From the UHGV virus genome UHGV-1270568: a DNA stretch of 19,450 nucleotides; one strand, given 5' to 3'. Source of the DNA: a virus. The translations under genes and the position numbers were made by a program. Shown here piece by piece: positions 1 through 19,270 of the stretch (its first letter is position 1; every line of letters begins with the position of its first letter). The notes below the pieces were generated by a model. The model saw only the letters and a list, made by a program, of their open reading frames with translations. It searched no databases and had not been told where the DNA came from.

Positions 1-1187
1 GAGGGCCACGGAACAGGTACACCAACGGGCAGTGCAGAGCCTTCCCCCAAACCAAGGTAATCAAGAACTCCCTGAGTGCTGGTTTTACCAAGAATGGCAC
101 GTCCAACACTTGTCAACGCGGTTAACGCGGCACGATCTGCCCCTGTAAAATATGGGAGTTTATCTGCTGATGTAGCAAGCTCCGCCAGCGCCGTCAGGGT
201 GGCATCCTTCGGTTGCTTACCCGCAAGCGCGTTAGTCATGGTGGTCGCAAAATTCGGGTCATTGCCCAGCGCCGCAGCCAGTTCGTTCAGCGTGTTCAGT
301 GCATCAGGTGACGAATCTACAAGTGCGGCAATCGCGGCCATAACGAAAGCCGTGCTTGCGATCTGGGTACTATTAGCCCCCTGTGGCGCTGTTGGTGTTG
401 TTGGCGTTCCGGTCAGTGCCGGGCTGTTTAATGGTGCTTTCTTGTTCGTTTCATCCATTACCGCCTTAACAGCTTTTGGTGTCGCTGCCAGCGTTTCAGA
501 CGTGCTGTTCGTGGCGCTACTGAGTTGAACAATCCCTTTTTGTGTAGTGGTGGCGTTCTGGGCGGTATATTTCCCGTTAGCCAGGTCATATGCAGCCTTA
601 ACCGCTTTCGGTGTTGCGGCCAGTGTTTCTGATTCACTGTTAATTGCACTGCTTAACTGAGTAAAACCTTTTACGGTCAGCGAGGCGTCCGGGTGACGTC
701 GTGATTGTTCGTGCTCTGATATTTTATCATCCACATATTTGCGGGTTGCCAGAACCACAGACGGGTCGATTTTCAGCGTGATGGCTTCGGTGTTCGTGAC
801 AACCAGAATCATGCGGATAGTCTGGGTGCGTCCACTGCCTTCCTGCAACTGCGGTTTGTACGTTTCCGGGCAGTTTGCCACCGCAATGAGTGCACCTTCA
901 TCATCATAAAGACCAATCTCACGGATCCAGAATCCTCCCTCGTTTTCAGGGATGATTTGCTCCGCAATAATCTGGCTCTGATTGTTAGGGTCAACACTCA
1001 GAAGATTCAGCGGTGCAATGCGTTTCTGGTTAATCAGTTTTGTTTGTGCAGGGTCTGGTGTTGGTAACACACCATTTGCATCACCAACGGCCATTTGCGT
1101 CAGATTCAGTTTACTGCCGAGCATCGTCGCGTTAGCCAGTCGTGCCGCGCCCTGATTAGTCAGAATAGCGTAGTATTTCACTGTCAT
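1..1187 (-). CDS. H: Tail fibre protein, N-terminal part (P2 gpH-like); gene continues beyond the window start
   Basis: Absent from the ORF track because it runs off the window. ATG at 1187..1185 overlaps the stop of the upstream gene (ATGA). My translation reads MTVKYYAILTNQGAARLANATMLGSKLNLTQMAVGDANGVLPTPDP... and stays open to position 1. Contains two copies of the ...SETLAATPKAVKA... module typical of P2-type fibre N-termini. ORFs 76..528(+) and 458..649(-) are shadows of it. Confidence 0.8.
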   Translation of the reverse strand, partial: MTVKYYAILTNQGAARLANATMLGSKLNLTQMAVGDANGVLPTPDPAQTKLINQKRIAPLNLLSVDPNNQSQIIAEQIIPENEGGFWIREIGLYDDEGALIAVANCPETYKPQLQEGSGRTQTIRMILVVTNTEAITLKIDPSVVLATRKYVDDKISEHEQSRRHPDASLTVKGFTQLSSAINSESETLAATPKAVKAAYDLANGKYTAQNATTTQKGIVQLSSATNSTSETLAATPKAVKAVMDETNKKAPLNSPALTGTPTTPTAPQGANSTQIASTAFVMAAIAALVDSSPDALNTLNELAAALGNDPNFATTMTNALAGKQPKDATLTALAELATSADKLPYFTGADRAALTALTSVGRAILGKTSTQGVLDYLGLGEGSALPVGVPVPWP

Positions 1188-1792
1188 GCGTTTACTCTCA
1201 GATTATCAATTAAATGAATGGCCGGGGCAGGGAAATAGTCCCCTTCGACAATAATGGACTCCGGGGTGTAGGGATAAACCGTCAGGGCATCGCCGTGATA
1301 GCATCCCGTACCAACGAAAATCTTTCCGTTCACACTCAGGCTGATCGCCAGCCCCGTCAGATGGCGACTTACTGGTTTTGCATCCGCAATAAGGCGCTCA
1401 AGTTCCTGATGCATTTCATCGGTGATGCCCTGATCAAGTACTCCGACAACAATGCGAAATGTTCCCGGCTCCTCGTTGAGTTGCCACCACTCCTTTACTT
1501 CAATCAGGTAGCCGAGAGGCTCCACGGCTCTTCGCAGTGCGCTGATGGTCCCTTTGTGTCGGTGTATCAGCCATGCATCACGAATCACCTGTCGCTTTGT
1601 CTCTTCCGGCCAGTTGCGATCCCAGCGGTCAACGGAAAACGCCCAGGCGAGATAAGGCAGCAGATGCACCGGGCAGGTGTCCGGCGACCACAGCGTGTTG
1701 AGGTCTACCGGAATGTCTGTAATGCGTGTTCCGACGGCTTCGGCACAACGCATGAAATTGCTGGCTGATGGTGGTAACAACGAATTACTCAT
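1184..1792 (-). CDS. I: Baseplate/tail protein I (P2 gpI-like)
   Basis: Track ORF 1184..1825; likely true start is the internal ATG at 1792 (MSNSLLPPSASNF...) with GGTGGA upstream. Motifs LWSPDTCP, LLPYLAWAFSVDRWD and RLIADAKPVSRHL match the P2 tail protein I family as I recall it. Immediately upstream of H, as in P2. Confidence 0.75.
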   Translation of the reverse strand: MSNSLLPPSASNFMRCAEAVGTRITDIPVDLNTLWSPDTCPVHLLPYLAWAFSVDRWDRNWPEETKRQVIRDAWLIHRHKGTISALRRAVEPLGYLIEVKEWWQLNEEPGTFRIVVGVLDQGITDEMHQELERLIADAKPVSRHLTGLAISLSVNGKIFVGTGCYHGDALTVYPYTPESIIVEGDYFPAPAIHLIDNLRVNA

Positions 1793-1821
1793 TGCGTCCA
1801 CCTTCGCTGATGGTGAATGAC

Positions 1822-1944
1822 TCACAGCGCGCCGCCTGTATGTCGCTGATGGCCATATTCTGTGTGGGTTCGATTATCACCATCATCGGTATCGGTGATG
1901 TCGTCCTCTGCGGGTCCGGGGTTGGTTCTGGCAACCATACTCAT
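1822..1944 (-). CDS. Possible 40-aa ORF at the M/I junction (MSMVARTNPGPAEDDITDTDDGDNRTHTEYGHQRHTGGAL); may be a junction artefact
   Basis: ATG at 1944 with AGGAG 9 nt upstream; acidic, low complexity; in-frame TGA closes the frame about 12 codons upstream of the ATG, so it is not simply the tail of a longer gene. Confidence 0.2.
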   Translation of the reverse strand: MSMVARTNPGPAEDDITDTDDGDNRTHTEYGHQRHTGGAL

Positions 1945-1956
1945 GGGGTTCACTCC

Positions 1957-2029
1957 TGAAAAAATCGGGCGGTGGGTGCGCGGTGTAAACGGTCACGGAG
2001 TCAAACCGGAACACCGCGCACGCCGCCCG
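1957..2029 (-). terminator. Terminator-like long imperfect hairpin followed by T6 on the minus strand, just downstream of M
   Basis: Minus strand reads CGGGCGGCGTGCGCGGTG ... CCGCGCACCCACCGCCCG then ATTTTTTCAGG; arms about 17 bp with a 3-nt bulge, loop about 26 nt. Confidence 0.4.
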
Positions 2030-2045
2030 CTGACGGGGTCAGTCG

Positions 2046-2846
2046 TTAACCGCGCTTTGCCTTCTGCGTCGCGGTGGTTTTTCGTGTTGCAGGCTTCCGC
2101 GTTGTCTTTTTACTTTTGCTGCTTTCGTCCTGCGCCTGCGGTGTGCTGGCATCTTCTGGTGCGGCTGTGGAATCGGCTTTTTTCAGGGCGCGGGAAAGGG
2201 TTGCAATCTCGCGTTTCACACCTGCGTTCGGGTTCAGGTGCATTGCTTCGCGTAGCAGCTTCAGTGATGAGGCCATGCTGTCCGCATCGGTCAGGCCACG
2301 GCGGGCAAAGGCGCACGCTTTGCATAATTTGGCGCGCACTTCGTCCGGCATGTCCTGGTCGGTGACAATCTCCCAAAGTGTGTCCAGTGGTTCGATAAAG
2401 GCGGACAAATCCGCGTCGGCATCCGTCCCGGCCTGCGTCAGTACCGGATTACAGATTTCTTCGGTCAGTACCGTGGCAGCAGTACGGCCAAAGTTATCCG
2501 GCATGATGAGGTTGTGATGGACCACATACGCGCCGATACGCAGCGCAAGCGGAAGATCGCCACAGTCAATCGCCCACACCATCAGCGTGGCAATCACTTC
2601 ATCCTGCTGCCCGCCGTCAGCTTCCAGCGTTCCCTCAATCCAGCCGGAAAAATCCGGCAACAACTCTTTTTTGATGGCGGCTTTCGCGCTTCTGGCCTGT
2701 ACGCCCTTAAGCCGGGCCTGTGCCAGACGCAGACGATACAGCACCTCTTCATGCGCGGTACGCGCGGCGTGGTCCACGCCTTCATTCGCCCGGCCTGCGC
2801 GCTGTGCCATCACGTTCAGCCAGTGTTGCTGTGCAGGAGTAATCAT
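2046..2846 (-). CDS. M: Terminase small (endonuclease) subunit, P2 gpM-like
   Basis: 266 aa; GGAGAG RBS 5 nt upstream of ATG 2846; motif DMPDEVRAKL and a basic K/R/T-rich C-terminal tail resemble P2 gpM; position downstream of N. Confidence 0.8.
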   Translation of the reverse strand: MITPAQQHWLNVMAQRAGRANEGVDHAARTAHEEVLYRLRLAQARLKGVQARSAKAAIKKELLPDFSGWIEGTLEADGGQQDEVIATLMVWAIDCGDLPLALRIGAYVVHHNLIMPDNFGRTAATVLTEEICNPVLTQAGTDADADLSAFIEPLDTLWEIVTDQDMPDEVRAKLCKACAFARRGLTDADSMASSLKLLREAMHLNPNAGVKREIATLSRALKKADSTAAPEDASTPQAQDESSKSKKTTRKPATRKTTATQKAKRG

Positions 2847-2891
2847 TTGTTCTCTCCGTTACAGGCGGGCATGATGCCCGCCGTGAGTTGA

Positions 2892-3944
2892 TTAGCTGTC
2901 GGCGAACTTCAGGCCAGTGACCATCGCGCACTTGCCATAGTCTTCAACGACATAAGCGTCATTGATGGACTGGTAGGTGGCGATGCGGTTGTATTCCGGC
3001 TCGTCTTTCATCAGGCGACGCATTGAACCTTTCTGCCAGTAAATCGACAGGTTGTTGAACGAGGTGATCAGCATCGTTGCATCCGGGAAGAACGGCGCAA
3101 GGAACACGCCCAGCCCGCCAATGGTGCGCGATGACAGGATGAGCTGCCCGGCAAGTAATTCCGCATTGGGATTCTGGCCGCTGATGCTGTTCAGCACGGG
3201 CAGACGCAGCGAGTTAAACAGGTTGCGCCCCATAATCACCGCGAGGTCGTCAGCTTCCTTGTGCCATTCATCCAGCAGGGATGAGCGCGCATCCTGTACC
3301 AGAGCATCGGCATTCGCATACTTACCCGCGTGCGCCACAGTGTTGTCCATGTTGCGGGAGGTCAGCGTCACGTCATTCATTACGCGCTCGCTGGCATCGG
3401 TTCTGATGTGCTCCAGCCAGCCCACGTTAACGTCCTGAAGCAGCTTGTTGGTGTGAAAATCAGACTCGTAGGCGTGGGATGTGCCGTTAAAGCCAATCAT
3501 GATGCGATCAAGCGCTACCTGCCGGGCGATCTGTGTACTGATACGGGACTGAAAATCGCTGTGGGCCGCCCAGGTATCAAGCTGTGGGTACGAAATAAAG
3601 GTATCGTAGTTCACCTGTTCGCACTGGTACTGACGAGACTTCATATCGATCACGTTATTCGGGTTACGGCGTTTGATGCCGTCATAACTGCTATTCGTGC
3701 GCGCAATTGGCCCGGTGGTGTCCAGGAGGATTTTTTCGCCTTTCTGGTCGGTCACGCCGATCACGTTAATTCTTTTCGTAAATTCGGTACTTTCCTTTGA
3801 GGCGTTTTCAAAACGCTGCTGCACCGCGGGTTCCACGGTAAATCGCGATACCAGTGCAGATACCGGGATATTGTTAAGCGACGCCTGCTGCGCCATATAG
3901 CAACCCAGCTTGTTGCGGGTAATATCTGACATCACCAGATTCAT
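2892..3944 (-). CDS. N: Major capsid protein, P2 gpN-like
   Basis: 350 aa; motifs FTVEP, GFNG, DVNVGWL, LSIYWQ and YVVEDY correspond to P2 gpN; AAGGAG RBS upstream; lies between O and M. Confidence 0.9.
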   Translation of the reverse strand: MNLVMSDITRNKLGCYMAQQASLNNIPVSALVSRFTVEPAVQQRFENASKESTEFTKRINVIGVTDQKGEKILLDTTGPIARTNSSYDGIKRRNPNNVIDMKSRQYQCEQVNYDTFISYPQLDTWAAHSDFQSRISTQIARQVALDRIMIGFNGTSHAYESDFHTNKLLQDVNVGWLEHIRTDASERVMNDVTLTSRNMDNTVAHAGKYANADALVQDARSSLLDEWHKEADDLAVIMGRNLFNSLRLPVLNSISGQNPNAELLAGQLILSSRTIGGLGVFLAPFFPDATMLITSFNNLSIYWQKGSMRRLMKDEPEYNRIATYQSINDAYVVEDYGKCAMVTGLKFADS

Positions 3945-4958: not shown

Positions 4959-6710
4959 ATGATTCAGGACGCTTTTGTGCGCCAGCGTGCGCGGCAACTT
5001 TACTGGCAGGGTTATCCGCCCGCAGAAATATCACGTCTGATGGGAATAAACCCGAACACGATTTATGCGTGGAAAAAACGCGACCAGTGGGATGAAACGC
5101 CACCCGTGCAGCGTGTCACGCAGTCCATCGATGCGCGCCTCATCCAGCTTACTGAAAAACAGAATAAAACAGGCGGTGACTTTAAGGAAATAGACCTGCT
5201 GACCCGGCAGCTTAAAAAAATGCATGATGGCCAGCCGGATGCGACGGCCACAGGAAAGAAAGGTCGGGCGAAAAAACTCAAAAATCATTTCACGCCGGAA
5301 CAGATTGCCGCACTGCGGGAAAAAATCATCAGCAGGCTGGAGTGGCATCAGCGGGGCTGGTTTGACTCCCTGACCCTTTGCAGGGAAGCCGGGATACGTA
5401 ACAGGATGATCCTGAAATCCCGACAGATTGGCGCGACCTGGTATTTTGCACAGGAAGCACTGCTGATGGCGCTGCGTGACGATGTGGCGCAACCTTACCA
5501 GCGTAACCAGATTTTTTTGTCTGCGTCGCGTCGTCAGGCGTTCCAGTTTAAAAGCATTATTCAGAAGGCCGCGGCTGAAGTTGATGTGGAGCTGAAAGGG
5601 GGCGATAAAATCATCCTCTCCAACGGCGCAGAGCTGCATTTTCTCGGCACTTCTGCTGCGTCGGCGCAGTCCTATACGGGCAATTTTTATTTTGATGAAT
5701 TTTTCTGGGTCAGTCGCTTTGCTGAACTGCGCAAGGTGGCTGGCGCTATGGCAACCCTCAGCGGATTGCGGCGCACCTACTTCTCCACGCCATCCACCGA
5801 AACGCACGAAGCATACGCCTACTGGAACGGCGACCGCTGGAACGAGAAAAAGGCCACGCATAAACGCCAGCGTTTTTCTGTGGACTGGAAAACGCTGCAT
5901 AACGGGCTTATCTGCCCTGACCGGACGTGGCGGCAAATTGTCACGCTGGAAGATGTGGTTAATCACGGCTGGAAACACACCGATATCGACGAAATTCGTG
6001 ATGAAAACACCGAAGACGAGTTCCTCAATCTCTATATGTGTGAGTTTGTCCGCGAAGGGGAATCGGCATTTAACCTGAATATCCTGATTGGCTGCGGTGT
6101 TGACGGATACGACGACTGGAAAGACTGGAAACCTTTTGCTCCCCGCCCGATGGGGAATCGTCCGGTATGGATTGGGTATGACGCAAACGGCAGCAGTGGC
6201 AACGGCGACAGCGGCGCTGTATCCGTGGTGGTTCCTCCGGCTGTTCCTGGTGGCCGTTTTCGAACGGTGGAGACGCGACGCGTTCAGGGGCTGGAGTTTG
6301 AAGAACAGGCCAGAGTCATTGAAGAGTTCACGTGTCGCTACAACGTGGAACACATCGGCATTGATGTGACGGGCGGGAACGGGGAGGCTGTTTATCAGAT
6401 AGTGAAACGGTTTTTCCCTGCCGCTATTCCGTACACCTTCACGCTGTCATCAAAACGGTCGCTGGTACTGAAAATGCTGCAAATAATGCGTGCCGGGCGG
6501 TGGGAATACGATCGCGCCGAACGCGAGCTGGTCGCGGCCTTTAACGCCGTGCGTAAGGTGAAAACACCGGGCGGCTTTATCACTTACGAAACGGACCGTG
6601 CGAGGGGGATCAGCCACGGCGACCTTGCGTGGGCAACCATGCTTGCTGTCATTAACGAACCGATTGGCGGCGAAGGAGAAAACGAGCGTTTCACGGTTAT
6701 GGAGTTCTGA
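4959..6710 (+). CDS. P: Terminase large (ATPase) subunit, P2 gpP-like
   Basis: 583 aa; GGGGAG RBS; N-terminal RQLYWQGY...ISRLMGINPNTIYAWKKRDQWDE resembles the gpP N-terminus; stop overlaps the Q start (TGATG). Confidence 0.9.
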   Translation: MIQDAFVRQRARQLYWQGYPPAEISRLMGINPNTIYAWKKRDQWDETPPVQRVTQSIDARLIQLTEKQNKTGGDFKEIDLLTRQLKKMHDGQPDATATGKKGRAKKLKNHFTPEQIAALREKIISRLEWHQRGWFDSLTLCREAGIRNRMILKSRQIGATWYFAQEALLMALRDDVAQPYQRNQIFLSASRRQAFQFKSIIQKAAAEVDVELKGGDKIILSNGAELHFLGTSAASAQSYTGNFYFDEFFWVSRFAELRKVAGAMATLSGLRRTYFSTPSTETHEAYAYWNGDRWNEKKATHKRQRFSVDWKTLHNGLICPDRTWRQIVTLEDVVNHGWKHTDIDEIRDENTEDEFLNLYMCEFVREGESAFNLNILIGCGVDGYDDWKDWKPFAPRPMGNRPVWIGYDANGSSGNGDSGAVSVVVPPAVPGGRFRTVETRRVQGLEFEEQARVIEEFTCRYNVEHIGIDVTGGNGEAVYQIVKRFFPAAIPYTFTLSSKRSLVLKMLQIMRAGRWEYDRAERELVAAFNAVRKVKTPGGFITYETDRARGISHGDLAWATMLAVINEPIGGEGENERFTVMEF

Positions 6711-7756
6711 TGAGCAGAAAAAATAAAAAAGTGCGCATGAGTTCACGCATTGATCTCGCTGATGCGCTCAGGAAAGAATCATCGCTCAGTGCATTCACAT
6801 TTGATGGTCCTTATCGCCTGACCGGGCATGACCTGCTGGACAATATGTACTGTGCTGATAACGGGCGGTGGTATGAAACCCCGGTGGACTGGTACGGTCT
6901 GGCAAGAGCTGCCCGGCAAACGTCCTGGCATCAGTCTGCGCTTTACTTTAAGCGCAATGTATTACTCGGTTGCTACATCCCGCACCCGTTGCTTTCCCGG
7001 CAGGATTTCTCGGCGCTGGCGCTGGACTGGTTTGTGTTCGGTAACGCATTCCTTGAGCTTCGAAGCAATATGCTCGGCGAACCGCTTAAATTACGGCACG
7101 CCCTGGCGAAATACATGCGACGCGGAAGCGATCTTGAATCATGGTGGTATGTGCAGGATGGCAAGGACGCGTTTCAGTTTCGCCCTGGCAAAGTGTGCCA
7201 CCTGATGAATCCTGACATTAACCAGGAAATCTACGGCATGCCGGAATATCTCGGCGCATTACTCTCGGCCAGCCTGTCTCATTCGGCGGACATGTTCAGA
7301 AAACTGTATTACGACAATGGATCCCACGCCGGGTGCATCATCTACATCGGTGCAGCGCAGGTAAACCGCGAAAGCATGGACTCCCTGAAAGAAACGCTAC
7401 AGGGGGCACGTGGTGGTGGTGCGTTTAAAAACGTGCTCATTCATGCGCCTAACGGGGGCAAAGAGGGGGTGCAAATTTTGCCGTTCCAGCAGATCACCGC
7501 AAAGGATGAGTTCATGAATGTTAAGGCGGCATCCCGTGATGATGTGCTGGCTGCGCACCGCGTTCCGCCGCAACTGATGGGGGCGATGCCGGGCGAAAAA
7601 AGTGCGTTTGGTGATGTGGAGAAGGCCGCGCGGGTTTACGCAATTAACGAGCTGATGCCCGTCATGGAGGCCATGAAGCACATCAATGACTGGCTTGGCG
7701 AAGAGGTGATCCGCTTTAACCCTTACGCACTGTTAGACACCCTGCCCACATCCTGA
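6710..7756 (+). CDS. Q: Portal (capsid vertex) protein, P2 gpQ-like
   Basis: 348 aa; translationally coupled to P; same size and position as P2 gpQ, last gene before the cos region. Confidence 0.85.
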   Translation: MSRKNKKVRMSSRIDLADALRKESSLSAFTFDGPYRLTGHDLLDNMYCADNGRWYETPVDWYGLARAARQTSWHQSALYFKRNVLLGCYIPHPLLSRQDFSALALDWFVFGNAFLELRSNMLGEPLKLRHALAKYMRRGSDLESWWYVQDGKDAFQFRPGKVCHLMNPDINQEIYGMPEYLGALLSASLSHSADMFRKLYYDNGSHAGCIIYIGAAQVNRESMDSLKETLQGARGGGAFKNVLIHAPNGGKEGVQILPFQQITAKDEFMNVKAASRDDVLAAHRVPPQLMGAMPGEKSAFGDVEKAARVYAINELMPVMEAMKHINDWLGEEVIRFNPYALLDTLPTS

Positions 7757-7863: not shown

Positions 7864-8085
7864 ATCATCGACAGTCAGACTCTTACACAATCCCACCGCG
7901 TTGACTGCATGTTCTCGCCGCCTCAGTGCGATTTTGACGGCCTTATCTTCCACTCCATCAAATCAAAAGCCCTCACGTCGTTTTCACGCTCAGCGTGAGA
8001 AATACAGCCATTCTGTTGTGTCGCTGCGACATCGTTCAGGGGATGCTATTTACCCCCTGAAACGCGGGCTGTTCCCCCGTCACCT

Positions 8086-8110
8086 GCGCGCAGAAAAAGC
8101 GCGTTTTTTT
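8086..8110 (+). terminator. Plus-strand Rho-independent terminator candidate
   Basis: Short GC stem (CGCGC / GCGCG, loop AGAAAAA) followed by TTTTTTT. Confidence 0.4.
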
Positions 8111-8180
8111 GTGCACGCACGGATCCTTGACGGATCCAGCCGCCATGCGGGCCGGAAGGGTAAAAAGTCGTTCAAAAAAA

Positions 8181-8208
8181 TTGTGCAAATTTGTGCACTT
8201 TTGTGCAA
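8181..8208. repeat. Three direct repeats TTGTGCA(A/C) at exact 10-bp spacing (8181, 8191, 8201); a fourth copy at 8109..8116
   Basis: Read directly; helical-phase periodicity suggests a protein-binding array in the cos-proximal region. Confidence 0.6.
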
Positions 8209-8233
8209 ACAAAAAGCGCCCCTGAGGCGCTTT
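8201..8233 (-). terminator. Minus-strand Rho-independent terminator closing the A / cargo operon
   Basis: 8-bp stem AAAGCGCC / GGCGCTTT with loop CCTGA at 8213..8233; on the minus strand it is followed by TTTTGTTTG. Confidence 0.55.
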
Positions 8234-8267
8234 AGTGTTTTATAGGTTGTGTATATTTGCTGGGTCC

Positions 8268-8531
8268 TTATCCTGCTGTGCTTTCAACTGATGAGGGGAA
8301 CAAAATCTTTTCATCAAACCCTGCATTCATATCATGGACAGCAACACACCAATCCATTGACGAACGATTATCAAGAGCCTCCATGATTTCATCCATGCGG
8401 CGTAGGTCATACAGGTAAATGCTTTTATCGCCAATGGTGTAAAAACCAATTTTTTTCGGTGATGGACAGCGATCAAGAACGTCCTGTAATTCGTTCAACC
8501 ATGCCCGTTCTTTTTTTGTCAAAGTTGCCAT
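8268..8531 (-). CDS. Hypothetical 87-aa protein, third gene of the cargo cassette
   Basis: MATLTKKERAWLNELQDVLDRCPSPKKIGFYTIGDK...; AAGGAGAG RBS lies inside the 17-bp linker repeat; single-nucleotide gap to the upstream stop. No family recognised. Confidence 0.6.
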   Translation of the reverse strand: MATLTKKERAWLNELQDVLDRCPSPKKIGFYTIGDKSIYLYDLRRMDEIMEALDNRSSMDWCVAVHDMNAGFDEKILFPSSVESTAG

Positions 8532-8532
8532 A

Positions 8533-9024
8533 TCACTCTCCTTTGATGCGAATACCAGTGGTACTCATTATCCTGATTTCCCAGAGCACACGAGGAACAC
8601 CACCGTTTCCGACTGGATCGCGTTTACTCCGCAGGGCGACGCTTGATTCCGCCCAGCTTTTTCTTGGAGGAAGCGCTTTCACACGAACAAAACCAGCTGC
8701 GCGAAGAGATGCTCCTGATTCATCTGCCCGGGTGTACGTAATACAACGTTGATAACCCATAGCTTTTGCTGCCCGCCAGACAGCACCATAAAGCGCGCTG
8801 TTAGCGTTGCGTTCTCCTGTGGTACATGTGCGATTTACTTCAAGCGTTAATCCATCATCCAAATGTCGTGCAACAGGTCGACCGGCTGTCGCCACACCTA
8901 TCAATTCTCCGGCATCATTTCTCAGACCAATGCTGAATTTATGCCCCACCGGGGGTTTATTGTGTCGGTGATGTCTGGATATAAACGCCTTCGCAACACG
9001 AAGAGTAACCGGTGAAATTTGCAT
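8533..9024 (-). CDS. Hypothetical 163-aa protein, possibly GNAT-like fold; second gene of the cargo cassette
   Basis: Track ORF 8533..9063; preferred start is ATG 9024 (MQISPVTLRV...) with AAGGAGAG RBS. The segment ...NANSALYGAVWRAAKAMGY... and the C-terminal ...SGASLRAAGFVRV... loosely resemble GNAT motifs; this assignment is weak. Ends ...IRIKGE encoded by the linker repeat. Confidence 0.55.
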   Translation of the reverse strand: MQISPVTLRVAKAFISRHHRHNKPPVGHKFSIGLRNDAGELIGVATAGRPVARHLDDGLTLEVNRTCTTGERNANSALYGAVWRAAKAMGYQRCITYTRADESGASLRAAGFVRVKALPPRKSWAESSVALRSKRDPVGNGGVPRVLWEIRIMSTTGIRIKGE

Positions 9025-9026
9025 TC

Positions 9027-9602
9027 TCACTCTCCTTTGATGCCAATGTTTACAGACTGGCAAGCCTCTTTGAGCACCCAGTCAACAGCGTCTTTCCATG
9101 CTCCGGTTTCGACTGGCGGATTCTCACGCTTTACCTGTTCATAGAAACGCACCGCTCTAACCAGTCCATCTGACGGTTTTGCCTGTAGTGCAGCCTGAGC
9201 TATGCGGTATGCCTGGAGCATACGGGCGTCGTTGGCTTTTTTGCGGTTGATGTTGGCTATGTCCGGCTGTGCGTTTGTGTCGAAATACTCGCTCAGTGGC
9301 AGGGTGACAACCACATCCACCTCCTGTGGCGTGATGCCTGATTTGACCAGCGCGTGATGAATGGCAATGACATTCACATCGCTGTACTGGTATTGCGTGT
9401 CAGTCGTCTGGACAAAGCGATCGCTGACCGGATCAAAACCATAGCGCACGCCATCAAGCATGTAGTTCGCGGGCTGCGTGCCACCGAACGGCGCAGACCA
9501 TTCCGACTTGAAGCTGTTCGGGCTGATGGCGTTGCGGCGTTCGCCGTTCTCAGTCCATGCCAGCTTGGTGTTGGTGGAGCCGTCATCGATACAAATTTTC
9601 AT
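9027..9602 (-). CDS. Chimeric protein: N-terminal 120-odd aa ParM/StbA-like (actin-fold ATPase N-terminus) fused to an unrelated 68-aa C-terminus
   Basis: MKICIDDGSTNTKLAW...ISPNSFK.EW...YSDVNV.A.HHAL..SG....EVD.V.T.PL......N.QP...NI.RKKAN tracks the N-terminus of plasmid R1 ParM as I remember it (phosphate-1 motif DDGSTN), then diverges. No ParM C-terminal half in any frame. AAGGAA RBS. Ends ...NIGIKGE from the linker repeat. Confidence 0.6.
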   Translation of the reverse strand: MKICIDDGSTNTKLAWTENGERRNAISPNSFKSEWSAPFGGTQPANYMLDGVRYGFDPVSDRFVQTTDTQYQYSDVNVIAIHHALVKSGITPQEVDVVVTLPLSEYFDTNAQPDIANINRKKANDARMLQAYRIAQAALQAKPSDGLVRAVRFYEQVKRENPPVETGAWKDAVDWVLKEACQSVNIGIKGE

Positions 9603-9636
9603 GTCGCTTTTCCTTATGTTGATTAATTAATCGTTT

Positions 9637-9656
9637 ACGGGATTCTGAAATCCCGT
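9637..9656. repeat. Palindrome ACGGGAT-N6-ATCCCGT, copy 1, between the A stop and the first cargo gene
   Basis: ACGGGATTCTGAAATCCCGT followed on the plus strand by TTTTGCC. Confidence 0.6.
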
Positions 9657-9678
9657 TTTTGCCTGTTTTATGCGCGCT

Positions 9679-12501
9679 TCATATATCGCGGCGCGTTTTT
9701 TGCTCATTTACGGGATTTGTGAATCCCGTTTCTGTCTGTTTTTTGTTTCCACTGGTCAGGCCACCCCGCAGCAGGTCTGCTTTGCGGCGGGCGCGTTCAG
9801 TGGTTTCACTGATTCTCTGTGCGTGCTCTGCGTCGCGGATGGCGCGCAGCATGTCAGAAAGCACGGTAACGGGTGTTTTCATGGTGTTCTGGTCTTGCTG
9901 AAGTGTGGATGCCAGGCGTGCGGCGGCTTCGGGGTCTGATGCCCTCAGCTGTTCCAGATAGCTGGCGACCGGGTTATGGCGGATCTCCGTACTGCTTACG
10001 CCGTGGTTACGGCTCAGGCGCTGCCAGAGCTGCGTGATCCGGCTGTCCGGTCGGGTATCCGGTTTGCGTACAATTTCAAATCCCTGCGGTGCAATGATGC
10101 TGCCGTCAACGTACAGACTGCCGCCCCGTAACAGGTGCTGCATCTGCTGTTCACCGATATGCAGGCCGAGAGATTCGGCAGATTCCCGCCATTCTTTAGC
10201 GAGTAATTCGTGGTTATCAGGCAAAGGCCGCTGCTGTTTGCGGCTCTGTGTCCAGCTCTGCATTTCATCACTGCTGTTTTTTGCCTGTTTGTCACGAAGC
10301 GAACGCATCAGCGCCCGGCGTTCGTGCCGTTTCAGTGAGCGCATCCATTCGTTCACGTCAACGCCGTCAGGAAGCTGCGGCCACGGTGCTGGCCGTTCTT
10401 CCGGCTGTTCTGTCCCGTTGTTGTCCGTTTCCTGTACACGGGGACAGTTATTGCCACGAGTCCAAGGGGCGGCAGGGCCGCCCTGAAGGTCAAAACCATT
10501 TTCGCGGGCGCTGTCTTCCGTTTCCGGTTTACGTCTTACCAGTTTCCAGTTATCCGGATGCGTGCACACACGGGAGGATTCCCCGATGAGTGGTGACCAG
10601 ATCCCGTAAATCTGTACGCTCTGTTCGCCGTAATCATTCAGCTCATCTGCGAGGTCGTAGGCGGTGCGAATCAGGTAGTCTTTGCGTGGAACAAGTACGC
10701 CGCCCTGTTTTTCAATGTAGGTGGCAAAACACCCGGCATCGGCGGCAGCGAGTACCGCATCCATTGCGTCATCTTTCAGTCGTTGCGGGCCTTCCGGGTT
10801 GCGTGCCATCTGGCTGGCAAGGCGGCGCAGTTCACGCCACACCTGACGGGAGGGGATGCCAAAGAACTGGAACTGGCGGACCCGATGAAGGCGCGCCCAG
10901 CCGATGGCGCGCTCCACACTCTCGGCCATTGATTTTCCGGTTTCGTGGTCAACGCGTGGCTTGCCCGTTTTCGGGTCGATGCCATCCACGGCGCGGCTGT
11001 CCAGGTTCTTTCCGATGTAGGTCGCGATATAGCTGGTTGGTGTGCCTTTTGAGCCGTCGACATACTCCGCCTTAAAGCGCGGAGTAATATCATTGCCCAG
11101 CTCGTGGCGGTCTTCCTGAATGGCAATATCGCGGGTGATGGCCACGATGCTGTCGATTTCTTCCGGATGAGCAAAGACCATCATATGCCAGTGCACGGTG
11201 CCGTCATGGTGAGGCTCCACCGTGCGGATGCCATACCAGCGAAGACCGTCGCGGTTCAGTTTTTTGCGGACCGCCGCAAAAAACGTGTTAACCAGGTAAT
11301 CGCTGGAGTCGCGCATGGTGGCCCCGTTCCATTTGGGATTCGGATGACCGTTCTCTGTTGTGGCGTGGTATTTTGACGGGCAGGTGACAGTCAGAAACAC
11401 CGCTTTGTCGCCACGGGCTTCGGCCAGAAGTTCCAGCCCCTTCATGGTGGCCATCATTTCTGCCTTACGGTGAACCGGGTTACTTACTCCCGCGTAATAC
11501 ACTGTCTCGAGATCAATCGTGAACCCGTCTTCGTTTTCCAGCATGAAACTTTTCAGGAAATCGCGTGTTTTCTCGCGCTGTGCGCGAAACTCGCTTAACG
11601 CGTCCTGGCTCAGATAGGGTGATGTTTTTCTGGAAACCAGACAGGCGGCGCGGAGTTGTTCTTCTCTCCACTCGCAACGTAACAGCCACAGTTTGCGTTT
11701 CCACCATTCCGCACAGGTCAGGCGAAGGACTGCGCCCGGCAGCAGCTCCGTGTCCGGTTCGTTCCTCCGGTCTTTATCTGTTGTCAGTGCGTCATAATGT
11801 GGAGGCATGATGTGCAGGTGTAACGCCATGCGGGCCAGCATCTGATACGCCTTCAGCGTTACATCCATGGTCAGCTCGCCATCTCTGGCACCAAAGCCAT
11901 CACAGAGTTTTTCGAAGGTGCTGCTGAACATCGCCGCCGTCATGGTGGCCAGCGACTGTATCTGGTGTTTGTTGAGCTGCGGCAGGTAAAGCAAATCGTC
12001 CAGGCGTTCGCGTCCGGCAAGGGAGCGATAACCCGGTGTCAGCCAGTGTCCGTCAGTGCGATCCAGACGTTCGAATATTTTGCGCAGGGTTCCGCGTGCA
12101 TAGCGTTCCGCCTGCCAGCTCTTTTTGCCTTTCCGGCGATCGGCTTCCTGTTTTTTGCGCAGGAAGGAGAGGTGGCGAATAAGCGGATCGCGCAGATAGG
12201 ACGGCAGCAGGCGCAGCGAGGCCATGGCTTCATCCACCGCGCCACGTGCCTGTTTTCTGGCTTCTCTGGCCAGTGTGATGGTTTTGTCCTGTTTTTCCTG
12301 TGCGTCCAGGCTTTTATTAATCAGGTTGCCCAGCGGCGTGGCGGAGAACGCCGCATCAGCCATTTCCTGGCGGCGCTCGTTCTCTGCCCGGTAGGCATCC
12401 AGCCAGGAGGAAAGCTCGGATTCAGGAGCGGGGATTCCCGTTCCTTCACGACCCACTGCGTGGCGCGGTTGTTGCCAGTCCCTGATGTACTCTGCCGTCA
12501 T
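9679..12501 (-). CDS. A: Rolling-circle replication initiation endonuclease, P2 gpA-like
   Basis: 940 aa; HUH-type motif TVHWHMMVFA (about residue 437) and paired-tyrosine motif TSYIATYIGK (Y491/Y495), matching the P2 gpA active site arrangement as I recall it; sits downstream of the early operon. Confidence 0.85.
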   Translation of the reverse strand: MTAEYIRDWQQPRHAVGREGTGIPAPESELSSWLDAYRAENERRQEMADAAFSATPLGNLINKSLDAQEKQDKTITLAREARKQARGAVDEAMASLRLLPSYLRDPLIRHLSFLRKKQEADRRKGKKSWQAERYARGTLRKIFERLDRTDGHWLTPGYRSLAGRERLDDLLYLPQLNKHQIQSLATMTAAMFSSTFEKLCDGFGARDGELTMDVTLKAYQMLARMALHLHIMPPHYDALTTDKDRRNEPDTELLPGAVLRLTCAEWWKRKLWLLRCEWREEQLRAACLVSRKTSPYLSQDALSEFRAQREKTRDFLKSFMLENEDGFTIDLETVYYAGVSNPVHRKAEMMATMKGLELLAEARGDKAVFLTVTCPSKYHATTENGHPNPKWNGATMRDSSDYLVNTFFAAVRKKLNRDGLRWYGIRTVEPHHDGTVHWHMMVFAHPEEIDSIVAITRDIAIQEDRHELGNDITPRFKAEYVDGSKGTPTSYIATYIGKNLDSRAVDGIDPKTGKPRVDHETGKSMAESVERAIGWARLHRVRQFQFFGIPSRQVWRELRRLASQMARNPEGPQRLKDDAMDAVLAAADAGCFATYIEKQGGVLVPRKDYLIRTAYDLADELNDYGEQSVQIYGIWSPLIGESSRVCTHPDNWKLVRRKPETEDSARENGFDLQGGPAAPWTRGNNCPRVQETDNNGTEQPEERPAPWPQLPDGVDVNEWMRSLKRHERRALMRSLRDKQAKNSSDEMQSWTQSRKQQRPLPDNHELLAKEWRESAESLGLHIGEQQMQHLLRGGSLYVDGSIIAPQGFEIVRKPDTRPDSRITQLWQRLSRNHGVSSTEIRHNPVASYLEQLRASDPEAAARLASTLQQDQNTMKTPVTVLSDMLRAIRDAEHAQRISETTERARRKADLLRGGLTSGNKKQTETGFTNPVNEQKTRRDI
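9710..9729. repeat. Palindrome ACGGGAT-N6-ATCCCGT, copy 2, inside the last about 15 codons of A
   Basis: ACGGGATTTGTGAATCCCGT, followed on the plus strand by a T-rich run; a third GC hairpin plus T6 lies between the two copies (9672..9701). Confidence 0.6.
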
Positions 12502-13543: not shown

Positions 13544-14374
13544 TTACTTCACCGGAACAAACGGAACAGCGGTGTTACTGGTCATGTATTGCGGTAGCGT
13601 GCCGTTCCATTTGTTAATCGCTTCCAGCTCCATAACGCCGGGATTCTGGCGCAGAGCTTCACCGCGTAAACGAATGGCGTCGGCTTCAGCCTGGGCTTTT
13701 GTGCGAATGGCATCGGCTTGTCCGGCAGCTTCTGCGCGCAGCATGTTGGCTTCAGCTTCGCGTTGCTTGACTTCCTGTTCACGTTGCAGGGTTTTCTGGT
13801 TTGCCGTGACTTTGGCATTAATGCTGTCGATAACGGTTGGCGGGTATTCCGGCTTACCCACATAAGAGAGGCTCATTACCTGAATGCCGATAGGTGTCAT
13901 TTCTGCCTGAATGTCTTTAAGTGCTGAATCCAGCAGTTCAGACTTGCCACCGTCGATAAATTTATCGGTGGTCATTTTGCTGGCCAGTCGGTTGAGTGCG
14001 TCGGCGATCTTCTGGCGCAGGTCAGTGTCGGTAATGTCATCCACGCCTTTGCGGTAGGTCTGAAACACTGTAGTAACTTTGGATGGATCAACCTTGTAGG
14101 CCACACCGATGTGATAGCCGATGGTTGTGCCGTCACTCATCTGAAAGCTGAACGGCTCATCGTAGGTCTTCATTTGTTTGAAGGTCGGGAAGATGTAAAC
14201 CTCGGTATTCCAGCCAGTCCAGTAGCGGCCAACGCCAACCACTTCGCCAACGCCTTTGTCGTCGCCCAGCTTGTTGACTTTGATGCCCACATTACCTGGC
14301 TCAACGCGATCGCAGCCAACCAGCAGGATGGCGGCAAAAAGCGGGAGAATCTGAAAGAGTTTGAATTTCTTCAT
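13544..14374 (-). CDS. SPFH / band-7 (prohibitin, HflC-like) domain lipoprotein
   Basis: 276 aa; N-terminal signal peptide with lipobox LLVGC; C-terminal Ala/Glu/Arg/Gln-rich coiled coil (QREQEVKQREAEANMLRAEAAGQADAIR...) typical of SPFH proteins; start overlaps upstream stop (ATGA). Confidence 0.7.
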   Translation of the reverse strand: MKKFKLFQILPLFAAILLVGCDRVEPGNVGIKVNKLGDDKGVGEVVGVGRYWTGWNTEVYIFPTFKQMKTYDEPFSFQMSDGTTIGYHIGVAYKVDPSKVTTVFQTYRKGVDDITDTDLRQKIADALNRLASKMTTDKFIDGGKSELLDSALKDIQAEMTPIGIQVMSLSYVGKPEYPPTVIDSINAKVTANQKTLQREQEVKQREAEANMLRAEAAGQADAIRTKAQAEADAIRLRGEALRQNPGVMELEAINKWNGTLPQYMTSNTAVPFVPVK

Positions 14375-18470: not shown

Positions 18471-18833
18471 GTGAAGTTTCATTTAGATGAACTTAAAAGA
18501 ATGGCAACGCTCGATAATTTTGCGCGTTTTCTCAATGAGTCGTCTACGAATGAAAAATGTTTGTCGTGTGGCGATACGGATATGTACATGTATTTGACGA
18601 ATATTGTTGAGGTGGGGCCTGAGCCGAAAACTGCTGAGGAGTGTGATTTAGGCACTCTTGTTATGCTTGATTATATCGGTCCATTTACTGGGTATCCGGG
18701 ATATGAGGGACATGATCGGGAAAATATCCATAACTATGAATTCCGACTTACCTGTAACAGATGTGGGTTTGTTCATCGTTACTCGGCCCGGGCCTTTATG
18801 AACTGGGTAGGCAAGCAGGGTGATGAGAAGTGA
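18471..18833 (+). CDS. Hypothetical 120-aa protein with two CxxC pairs (putative zinc ribbon), coupled to int
   Basis: GTG start 3 nt after the int stop with GGAGG RBS; CLSCGD ... CNRCGF; AT-rich codon usage compared with the phage core. Confidence 0.5.
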   Translation: MKFHLDELKRMATLDNFARFLNESSTNEKCLSCGDTDMYMYLTNIVEVGPEPKTAEECDLGTLVMLDYIGPFTGYPGYEGHDRENIHNYEFRLTCNRCGFVHRYSARAFMNWVGKQGDEK

Positions 18834-19270
18834 TGGCAGAGAATGTTGCACATATTTCGCGGTTCAGAAAAAAGAAAGAGAATGCCTATAATGTATCCAA
18901 CAACCAAGTAACAGGAAGTGGTAATGATGGAGGTGATGGCATGAATGACGACCTTGAACGGCGGGTCAGTTGCCTGGAAAGTGATGTGACTGAAATCAAA
19001 AACAACCTGATTACTCTCACCACAAGAAGCGAATCCTTTGCTACCAAATCTGATGTACTGGAGATTCGCGAAGGGTTGAGGCTTGAGATGGCAGAATCTC
19101 GCCAATCCCTGAAGTCTGAGATGGCTGATTTACGCCAGTCTCTGAAAGTTGAGATGGCTGAGCATCGTACTGAACTTCAGAAATCATTTGCAAATCAGAC
19201 TTGGTTACTCACAGGTATTGTCCTGTCTGCGATGGCCGTGCTTGTGGCTGTGGTTACTGTTATTAAGTAA
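18833..19270 (+). CDS. Coiled-coil protein with C-terminal TM anchor and three tandem 11-aa repeats
   Basis: Start either ATG 18833 (overlaps upstream stop, TGATG; the track's GTG 18830 is an alternative) or internal ATG 18941 with strong GGAGGTG RBS. Repeats EMAESRQSLKS / EMADLRQSLKV / EMAEHRTELQK (33-bp DNA repeats), then WLLTGIVLSAMAVLVAVVTVIK. Confidence 0.5.
   Translation: MAENVAHISRFRKKKENAYNVSNNQVTGSGNDGGDGMNDDLERRVSCLESDVTEIKNNLITLTTRSESFATKSDVLEIREGLRLEMAESRQSLKSEMADLRQSLKVEMAEHRTELQKSFANQTWLLTGIVLSAMAVLVAVVTVIK

Follow-up and report, generated by a model that had tools for sequence, protein, structure and literature searches.

An in-frame ParM-Ea22-like fusion in a P88-type prophage, the probable scar of a recent deletion of the partition module

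How does a prophage come to encode the N-terminal part of the partition ATPase ParM in one frame with a tail that is unrelated to ParM, and is the fused product of any use? The question is raised by a 191-codon open reading frame in a viral genome (UHGV-1270568) of which a stretch of 19.45 kb, referred to here as the window, was analyzed. An earlier, sequence-only reading of this DNA had described the frame as a truncated ParM-like actin fold with a novel C-terminus, and had proposed that it is either a captured plasmid gene fragment or a repurposed domain, for example a decoy or sensor. The window is a P88-type (Xuanwuvirus, P2-family) prophage, and the frame is located between the genes for gpA and gpQ, a locus that has been described as a genetic diversity hotspot of P2-like phages (Rousset et al., 2022; PMC9122126). 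The features of this region, in window coordinates, are:

9679..12501, minus strand: gene for the replication endonuclease gpA, 940 aa (Pfam Phage_GPA, E = 3e-131), the upstream border of the hotspot
9603..9678, minus strand: native gpA-parM intergenic region, 76 bp, with the ribosome-binding site and a conserved 20-bp palindrome at 9637-9656
9027..9602, minus strand: chimeric open reading frame, 191 aa, ParM residues 1-124 followed by residues 37-104 of an Ea22-like 104-aa protein
9235..9602, minus strand: parM-derived part of the chimera, parM nt 1-368, containing the phosphate-1 motif DDGSTN
9234..9235, minus strand: deletion junction, ...CGCAAAAAAGC joined to CAACGACGCC..., with 1,407 bp missing compared to the arrangement in PhiR44_2 and PCN033
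9027..9234, minus strand: part derived from the 104-aa Ea22-like gene, from nt 108 to the stop codon of that gene
8533..9024, minus strand: XF1762-family or Mom-like gene, 163 aa (NCBIfam NF045478, E = 2.4e-60; PHROG 1384, "Mom-like DNA modification protein")
8268..8531, minus strand: hypothetical 87-aa gene, the last of the cassette (PHROG 1714)
6710..7756, plus strand: gene for the portal protein gpQ, the downstream border of the hotspot

The frame runs without interruption from the ATG at 9602 to the stop codon at 9027 (ORF listing) and is preceded, 8 nt before the ATG, by the Shine-Dalgarno sequence AAGGA. The open frame of 191 codons and the ribosome-binding site had both been recognized in the sequence-only reading; the latter is the native site of parM. 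Residues 1-130 of the chimera correspond to positions 1-130 of the 158 positions of Pfam StbA_N (PF06406; E = 4.5e-64), leaving this domain about 28 model positions short. Pairwise alignment to ParM of plasmid R1 (PDB 1mwk, 4a62, and 5aey), as had been proposed, matches chimera residues 2-127 to R1 residues 2-128 with E = 4e-41 and includes DDGSTN, the DxGxxN phosphate-1 motif, at chimera residues 6-11. Judged by these scores, the ParM match of the N-terminus is far beyond chance, and the switch out of ParM had been placed correctly, near residue 123. More precisely, the chimera consists of ParM residues 1-124 and a 67-residue tail, with N124 common to both parents. The ParM part is 98-99% identical to its intact parents over the 124 residues, and the single substitution that separates it from the closest of these (PCN033) is I12T, which adjoins the phosphate loop at a position occupied by Ile in every intact ParM examined.

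The remainder of ParM is absent. Searching the 19.45-kb window with the parent protein (tblastn) gave no match with E < 0.39 to ParM residues 125-319, in line with the earlier statement that no C-terminal half exists nearby, and the chimera has no Pfam match to the C-terminal ParM domain (PF21523) that the parent ParM contains (E = 1.3e-68). With the intact parent's proteins as tblastn queries, ParR, the ClpX-zinc-finger gene and the N-terminus of the 104-aa gene were not detected in the window either; the adaptor gene parR (StbB, PF10784) is present beside parM in the parents. When compared to R1 ParM/StbA (1MWK, 4A62, 5AEY), the actin-like ATPase of a type II partition system, the chimera has the matching phosphate-1 loop DDGSTN and subdomain Ib, but lacks the end of StbA_N, the whole of PF21523, the phosphate-2 motif, the adenosine-binding site and the ParR partner. 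The end of domain I and all of domain II are missing, and the earlier conclusion that a complete actin fold cannot form is upheld. From what is established on the structure of ParM, such a fragment would be unable to build the cleft in which an actin-fold ATPase binds its nucleotide. Lacking part of domain I, all of domain II (DLGGTT, adenosine pocket) and ParR, the product would not be expected to bind ATP, to polymerize or to move DNA, and would be without ParM activity.

The tail is unrelated to ParM, as had been stated, but it is not novel, as it is the end of the neighboring Ea22-like gene. It is 100% identical (0 differences) to residues 37-104 of WP_001080491.1 of E. coli PCN033, and 99% identical to the last 68 residues of the 104-aa protein of PhiR44_2. 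Chimera residues 138-191 match PHROG 26213 (E = 2.3e-30), PHROG 660 (E = 2.2e-23) and also PHROG 250, and the conserved Ea22-like C-terminal module (...AVRFYEQVKRENPPVETGAWKDAVDWVLKEAC...) is present. A search with the tail only yielded 107 homologues, small prophage proteins of mostly 80-118 aa, some of them named Ead/Ea22-like, in which one conserved C-terminal module is found behind very different N-termini. Neither the tail nor the 104-aa parent matches Pfam Ead_Ea22 (PF13935), even at E up to 1; this domain is carried by only some members of the Ea22-like family. The gene for the 104-aa protein (WP_001080491.1 / XSB42705.1) has its stop codon in common with the chimera and is separated from the XF1762 gene by an equal distance, whereas the native N-terminal 36 residues of the protein are replaced in the chimera by 124 ParM residues. 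The last codons of the tail (AAAGGAGAG) hold the Shine-Dalgarno sequence of the XF1762 gene, of which the start codon is located 3 nt after the chimera stop codon, with two bases in between. A candidate relative spanning the junction in phage vB_EcoM-606R7 (tblastn, query residues 79-190) was rejected, as BLASTP reduced it to a tail-only match (residues 131-190).

In intact relatives the two parts of the chimera belong to separate genes. The gene order after gpA in PhiR44_2, P88, and PCN033 is parM (319 aa), parR (103 aa), a ClpX-zinc-finger gene (110 aa) and the 104-aa gene, the last being three genes downstream of parM, and in PhiR44_2 and PCN033 the 104-aa gene is followed by an XF1762-family gene and then the 87-aa gene. 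The Pfam domains of the parent proteins are StbA_N and the ParM C-terminal domain, Plasmid_stab_B, and zf-C4_ClpX. Full-length P88-type parM (P88 gp17, YP_009113060.1; PCN033, WP_000686505.1) likewise follows gpA immediately, and its 76-bp upstream region and its ribosome-binding site are those of the chimera. It codes for 319 aa and has a StbB-type parR behind it, whereas codons 125-319 and parR are deleted from the chimera locus. Compared to its parents, the window lacks exactly 1,407 bp, equal to 469 codons: positions 12198-9230 are collinear with 635-3603 of the PhiR44_2 locus and positions 9234-7750 with 5006-6491, and comparison with P88 and PCN033 gave the same result. The missing DNA comprises the ParM C-terminal half (codons 125-319), parR/StbB, the ClpX-zinc-finger gene and, from the 104-aa gene, 36 codons. 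The chimera differs from PCN033 in I12T and the junction codon alone, and the sequence downstream is identical to at least position 8200.

Between window positions 9235 and 9234 the join reads ...CGCAAAAAAGC followed directly by CAACGACG.... The breakpoints contain no repeats, their sole similarity being AACG one base inside the junction, and the right-hand partner supplies the C at the join. Another source for this C, a GCC variant at parM codon 123 that would have given a 5-bp microhomology, was considered and rejected: GCC occurs in 0 of the intact IMG/VR parM genes and GCG in at least 120. Window 9235-9245 corresponds to parM codons 120-123, CGCAAAAAAGC, and the A6 run before the breakpoint is also the point at which frameshifted 158-aa forms of ParM diverge. 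An independent deletion of 1,072 bp (P0015, described below) has its left breakpoint directly after parM nt 368, as does the 1,407-bp deletion. Codons 120-123 of parM may represent a local hotspot for slippage or breakage.

The deletion allele is rare. Among 5,426 complete E. coli genomes, two contain its junction, 266917_2 (United Kingdom) and PO06021 (Galapagos). Within this set, 1,303 genomes carry the 5' part of parM, at 1,442 places in total, and 1,280 genomes carry the 3' half, at 1,413 places; the P88-type parM-parR module is intact in about 98% of copies. The exact 191-aa protein is encoded on 143 contigs and in 283 index blocks (NCBI, ENA, JGI, Logan). Two IMG/VR contigs span the junction, no record in the phage collection does so, and it was not found in GTDB, searched with one genome per species. 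The search for full-length homologues of the chimera in other prophages, which the sequence-only reading had suggested, uncovered copies and single-residue variants that are at least 99% identical; the next matches cover one half only, and diverged homologues with the two-part ParM-N/Ea22-C architecture were not found. As all copies of the fusion are at least 99% identical, they reflect one recent event and not a family.

Three of the single-residue variants retain the ancestral Ile12, indicating that I12T arose after the deletion. Eleven chimera loci are identical at the nucleotide level from about window position 8043 to 9765, and gpA in these loci differs from that of the window by up to 3.3%. 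The chimera is found in apparently intact prophages with at least three different integrases and integration sites, next to dmsA, btuC, and pdxB. The several integrases and the divergent gpA backgrounds suggest that the allele spread by recombination or infection, without strong counter-selection. From these comparisons, the allele has a single recent origin and later moved between related prophages, making it a lineage marker rather than a protein family. Whether the 191-aa architecture might be a conserved, annotated phage protein family had been raised at the outset. It is not a conserved family, and NCBIfam gives no match for the chimera, but the DNA had already been annotated: PGAP (NCBI/RefSeq) labels it as two overlapping incomplete pseudogene fragments. 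What has been annotated is a gene remnant of an ordinary, known kind and not a new protein.

We consider it highly probable (roughly 0.86) that the open reading frame is the non-functional in-frame scar of one recent illegitimate deletion in a P88-type prophage, its real effect being the loss of the partition module. The ancestral order from gpA to gpQ would have been parM, parR (StbB), the ClpX-zinc-finger gene, the 104-aa gene, the XF1762 gene and the 87-aa gene, from which the 1,407-bp deletion would have taken out everything from parM codon 125 up to and including codon 36 of the 104-aa gene, with parR and the zinc-finger gene in between. As parM and the 104-aa gene are in a common frame and the loss amounts to 469 whole codons, the start codon and ribosome-binding site of parM would read through to the stop codon of the 104-aa gene. 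The frame is probably open only because the event is young and happened by chance to be in frame, and selection that keeps ribosomes running to the XF1762 gene may have helped to keep it open. The origin as a captured plasmid fragment, offered in the sequence-only reading, gives way to that of a remnant of a parM-parR module resident in the phage lineage, where about 98% of copies are intact.

Several observations weigh against interpreting the frame as a remnant. The frame is open and its ribosome-binding site intact, the exact protein has reached 143 contigs and 283 index blocks, and it has spread across prophages with at least three integrases and is not strongly counter-selected. Moreover, all three independent fusions known at this locus are in frame, an observation to which the bias of a protein search applies.

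The intact module from which the scar derives is well maintained. A full 319-aa open reading frame is present in 96 of 100 evaluable IMG/VR parM loci, with pN/pS of intact parM about 0.08 in both halves of the gene, which indicates that P88-type parM is under strong purifying selection and clearly functional. The P88-type parM-parR module (locus L016, 2558-3833) is chromosomal at 1,440 of 1,442 places. For the partition system of these phages, plasmid maintenance has been suggested as a possibility (Rousset et al., 2022; PMC9122126).

Other damaged alleles exist beside the 1,407-bp deletion. An independent deletion of 1,809 bp, present in 47 index blocks, leaves a 57-aa open reading frame of ParM residues 1-21 and 36 tail residues, and the independent 1,072-bp deletion (P0015), known from a single short-read contig, leaves a 199-aa frame of ParM residues 1-123 and the zinc-finger protein; the frameshifted 158-aa ParM forms are present as well. 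With 21 or 123 ParM residues kept in these other fusions, no ParM domain boundary is being preserved. All three deletions (1,407, 1,809, and 1,072 bp) create in-frame fusions that start at the parM ATG. The fusions were found through a protein search, which skews the sample to in-frame events, since out-of-frame ones give no tail match. Search bias is the likely explanation for the three in-frame fusions; selection for read-through into the downstream cassette is possible.

If such selection were at work, the fusion protein itself could be dispensable and the open frame maintained for expression of the XF1762 and 87-aa genes (translational coupling, no polarity), or the Ea22-like module could function with a passenger N-terminus. 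Beyond the three in-frame deletions, this is favored by the arrangement of the genes, as both alleles that end in the Ea22-like tail directly precede the XF1762 gene, the Shine-Dalgarno sequence of that gene lies inside the last codons of the upstream frame, and the chimera stop codon is two bases before its ATG. The Ea22-like family moreover naturally pairs its conserved C-terminal module with many unrelated N-termini. However, the sample is biased, out-of-frame fusions being invisible as tail matches, and the XF1762 gene has a strong AAGGAG of its own, so that coupling may be unneeded. Nor is the tail module consistently preserved, as no more than 36 of its residues remain in the 57-aa allele. 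On balance we regard this explanation as unlikely. Still more doubtful is a bolder version, in which the in-frame fusions are no accident: P88-type prophages would repeatedly collapse the module while keeping an N-terminal ParM peptide, and the 191-aa product would hinder the ParM filaments of rival P88-type phages, present in a quarter of E. coli strains, or serve the expression of the XF1762/Mom-like cassette.

A repurposed ParM fragment, one that works as a decoy, sensor or poison subunit on the ParM filaments of rival plasmids or rival phages of the P88 type, would be in keeping with the position of the frame in a known anti-phage and accessory hotspot, with a common target (P88-type ParM is found in 24% of complete E. 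coli genomes) and with the occurrence of the allele in several prophage backgrounds. Yet the allele accounts for only 2 of the 1,442 parM copies in complete genomes, and its nucleotide identity to its parents leaves no sign of adaptation; its one substitution, I12T, adjoins the phosphate loop, where all intact ParM proteins examined have Ile. The fragment also ends inside domain I, another fusion keeps only 21 ParM residues, and no matches were found with PADLOC. These observations make the decoy or sensor role of the earlier reading very improbable.

Structure prediction bears on the same point. AlphaFold2, run on a 37-sequence alignment of fragments, gave a model of the chimera with a mean pLDDT of 56. 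Of the half-actin fold plus helical tail for which the sequence-only reading had proposed to look, the helical tail was recovered, with block-mean pLDDT mostly 64-89 and falling to 27 at the last residues, but the ParM part is mostly below 50, a low-confidence model for the supposed half-fold. One predicted helix crosses the junction. The alignment is shallow, making this weak evidence.

That the join is an assembly or sequencing artefact of two separate regions can practically be dismissed, as nothing was found in its favor beyond the fact that the related fusion P0015 is a single short-read contig, and the identical junction is present in 2 independent complete genomes, 2 IMG/VR contigs, and 283 index blocks.

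As the scar of a deletion, the chimera offers a case of cargo turnover, dated and with exactly known ends, from the gpA-gpQ hotspot of P2-like phages, and shows that such phages can lose a partition module and still circulate. For annotation, the practical lesson is to follow RefSeq and record the frame as a fusion of pseudogenes, without founding a new ParM-like family on it. Of greater interest is why an integrating phage retains ParMR, which a quarter of E. coli genomes carry and which is under strong purifying selection. The gpA-gpQ locus, which holds old and tin in P2, carries variable cargo that includes a partition system, and about one in four P2-like phages has a putative plasmid partition system there (Rousset et al., 2022; PMC9122126), in agreement with the 24% of complete E. 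coli genomes that have P88-type parM. Pseudogene remnants have been reported as frequent in such loci (2026 preprint, 10.64898/2026.02.27.708500). The locus described here occupies the same site, but none of the genes of its cassette matches a known defense system, and the chimera is a remnant of cargo turnover rather than a cargo gene. PADLOC-DB gave no match for the chimera, the two downstream genes or the four genes of the parent module.

The XF1762 and 87-aa cassette (8268-9024, minus strand) recurs with 95-98% nucleotide identity in unrelated phages, some of them lambdoid, and in some of these it is found beside Ea22-like genes.

Upstream of the chimera, a promoter scan of the minus strand showed no sigma-70-like site. 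Two 20-bp palindromes, ACGGGATT-N4-AATCCCGT, are present at window positions 9637-9656 and 9710-9729, 73 bp apart (0.02 matches expected by chance). One, about 35 nt before the start codon, lies between gpA and parM and is matched exactly in most of the P88-type loci fetched; the other lies within the 3' end of gpA. On the plus strand, a T run after each of them gives a terminator-like appearance. The palindromes might serve as parC, as operators or as antisense terminators. A P2-like parM locus of Serratia, compared in the search for parC, has different repeats at the position of the palindrome. Elsewhere in the window, the early region contains an SPFH/Band_7 gene (276 aa; 13544-14374, minus strand), and two open reading frames without a family match (120 and 146 aa; 18471-19270, plus strand) are located between the integrase gene and host btuC; these genes may be further accessory cargo.
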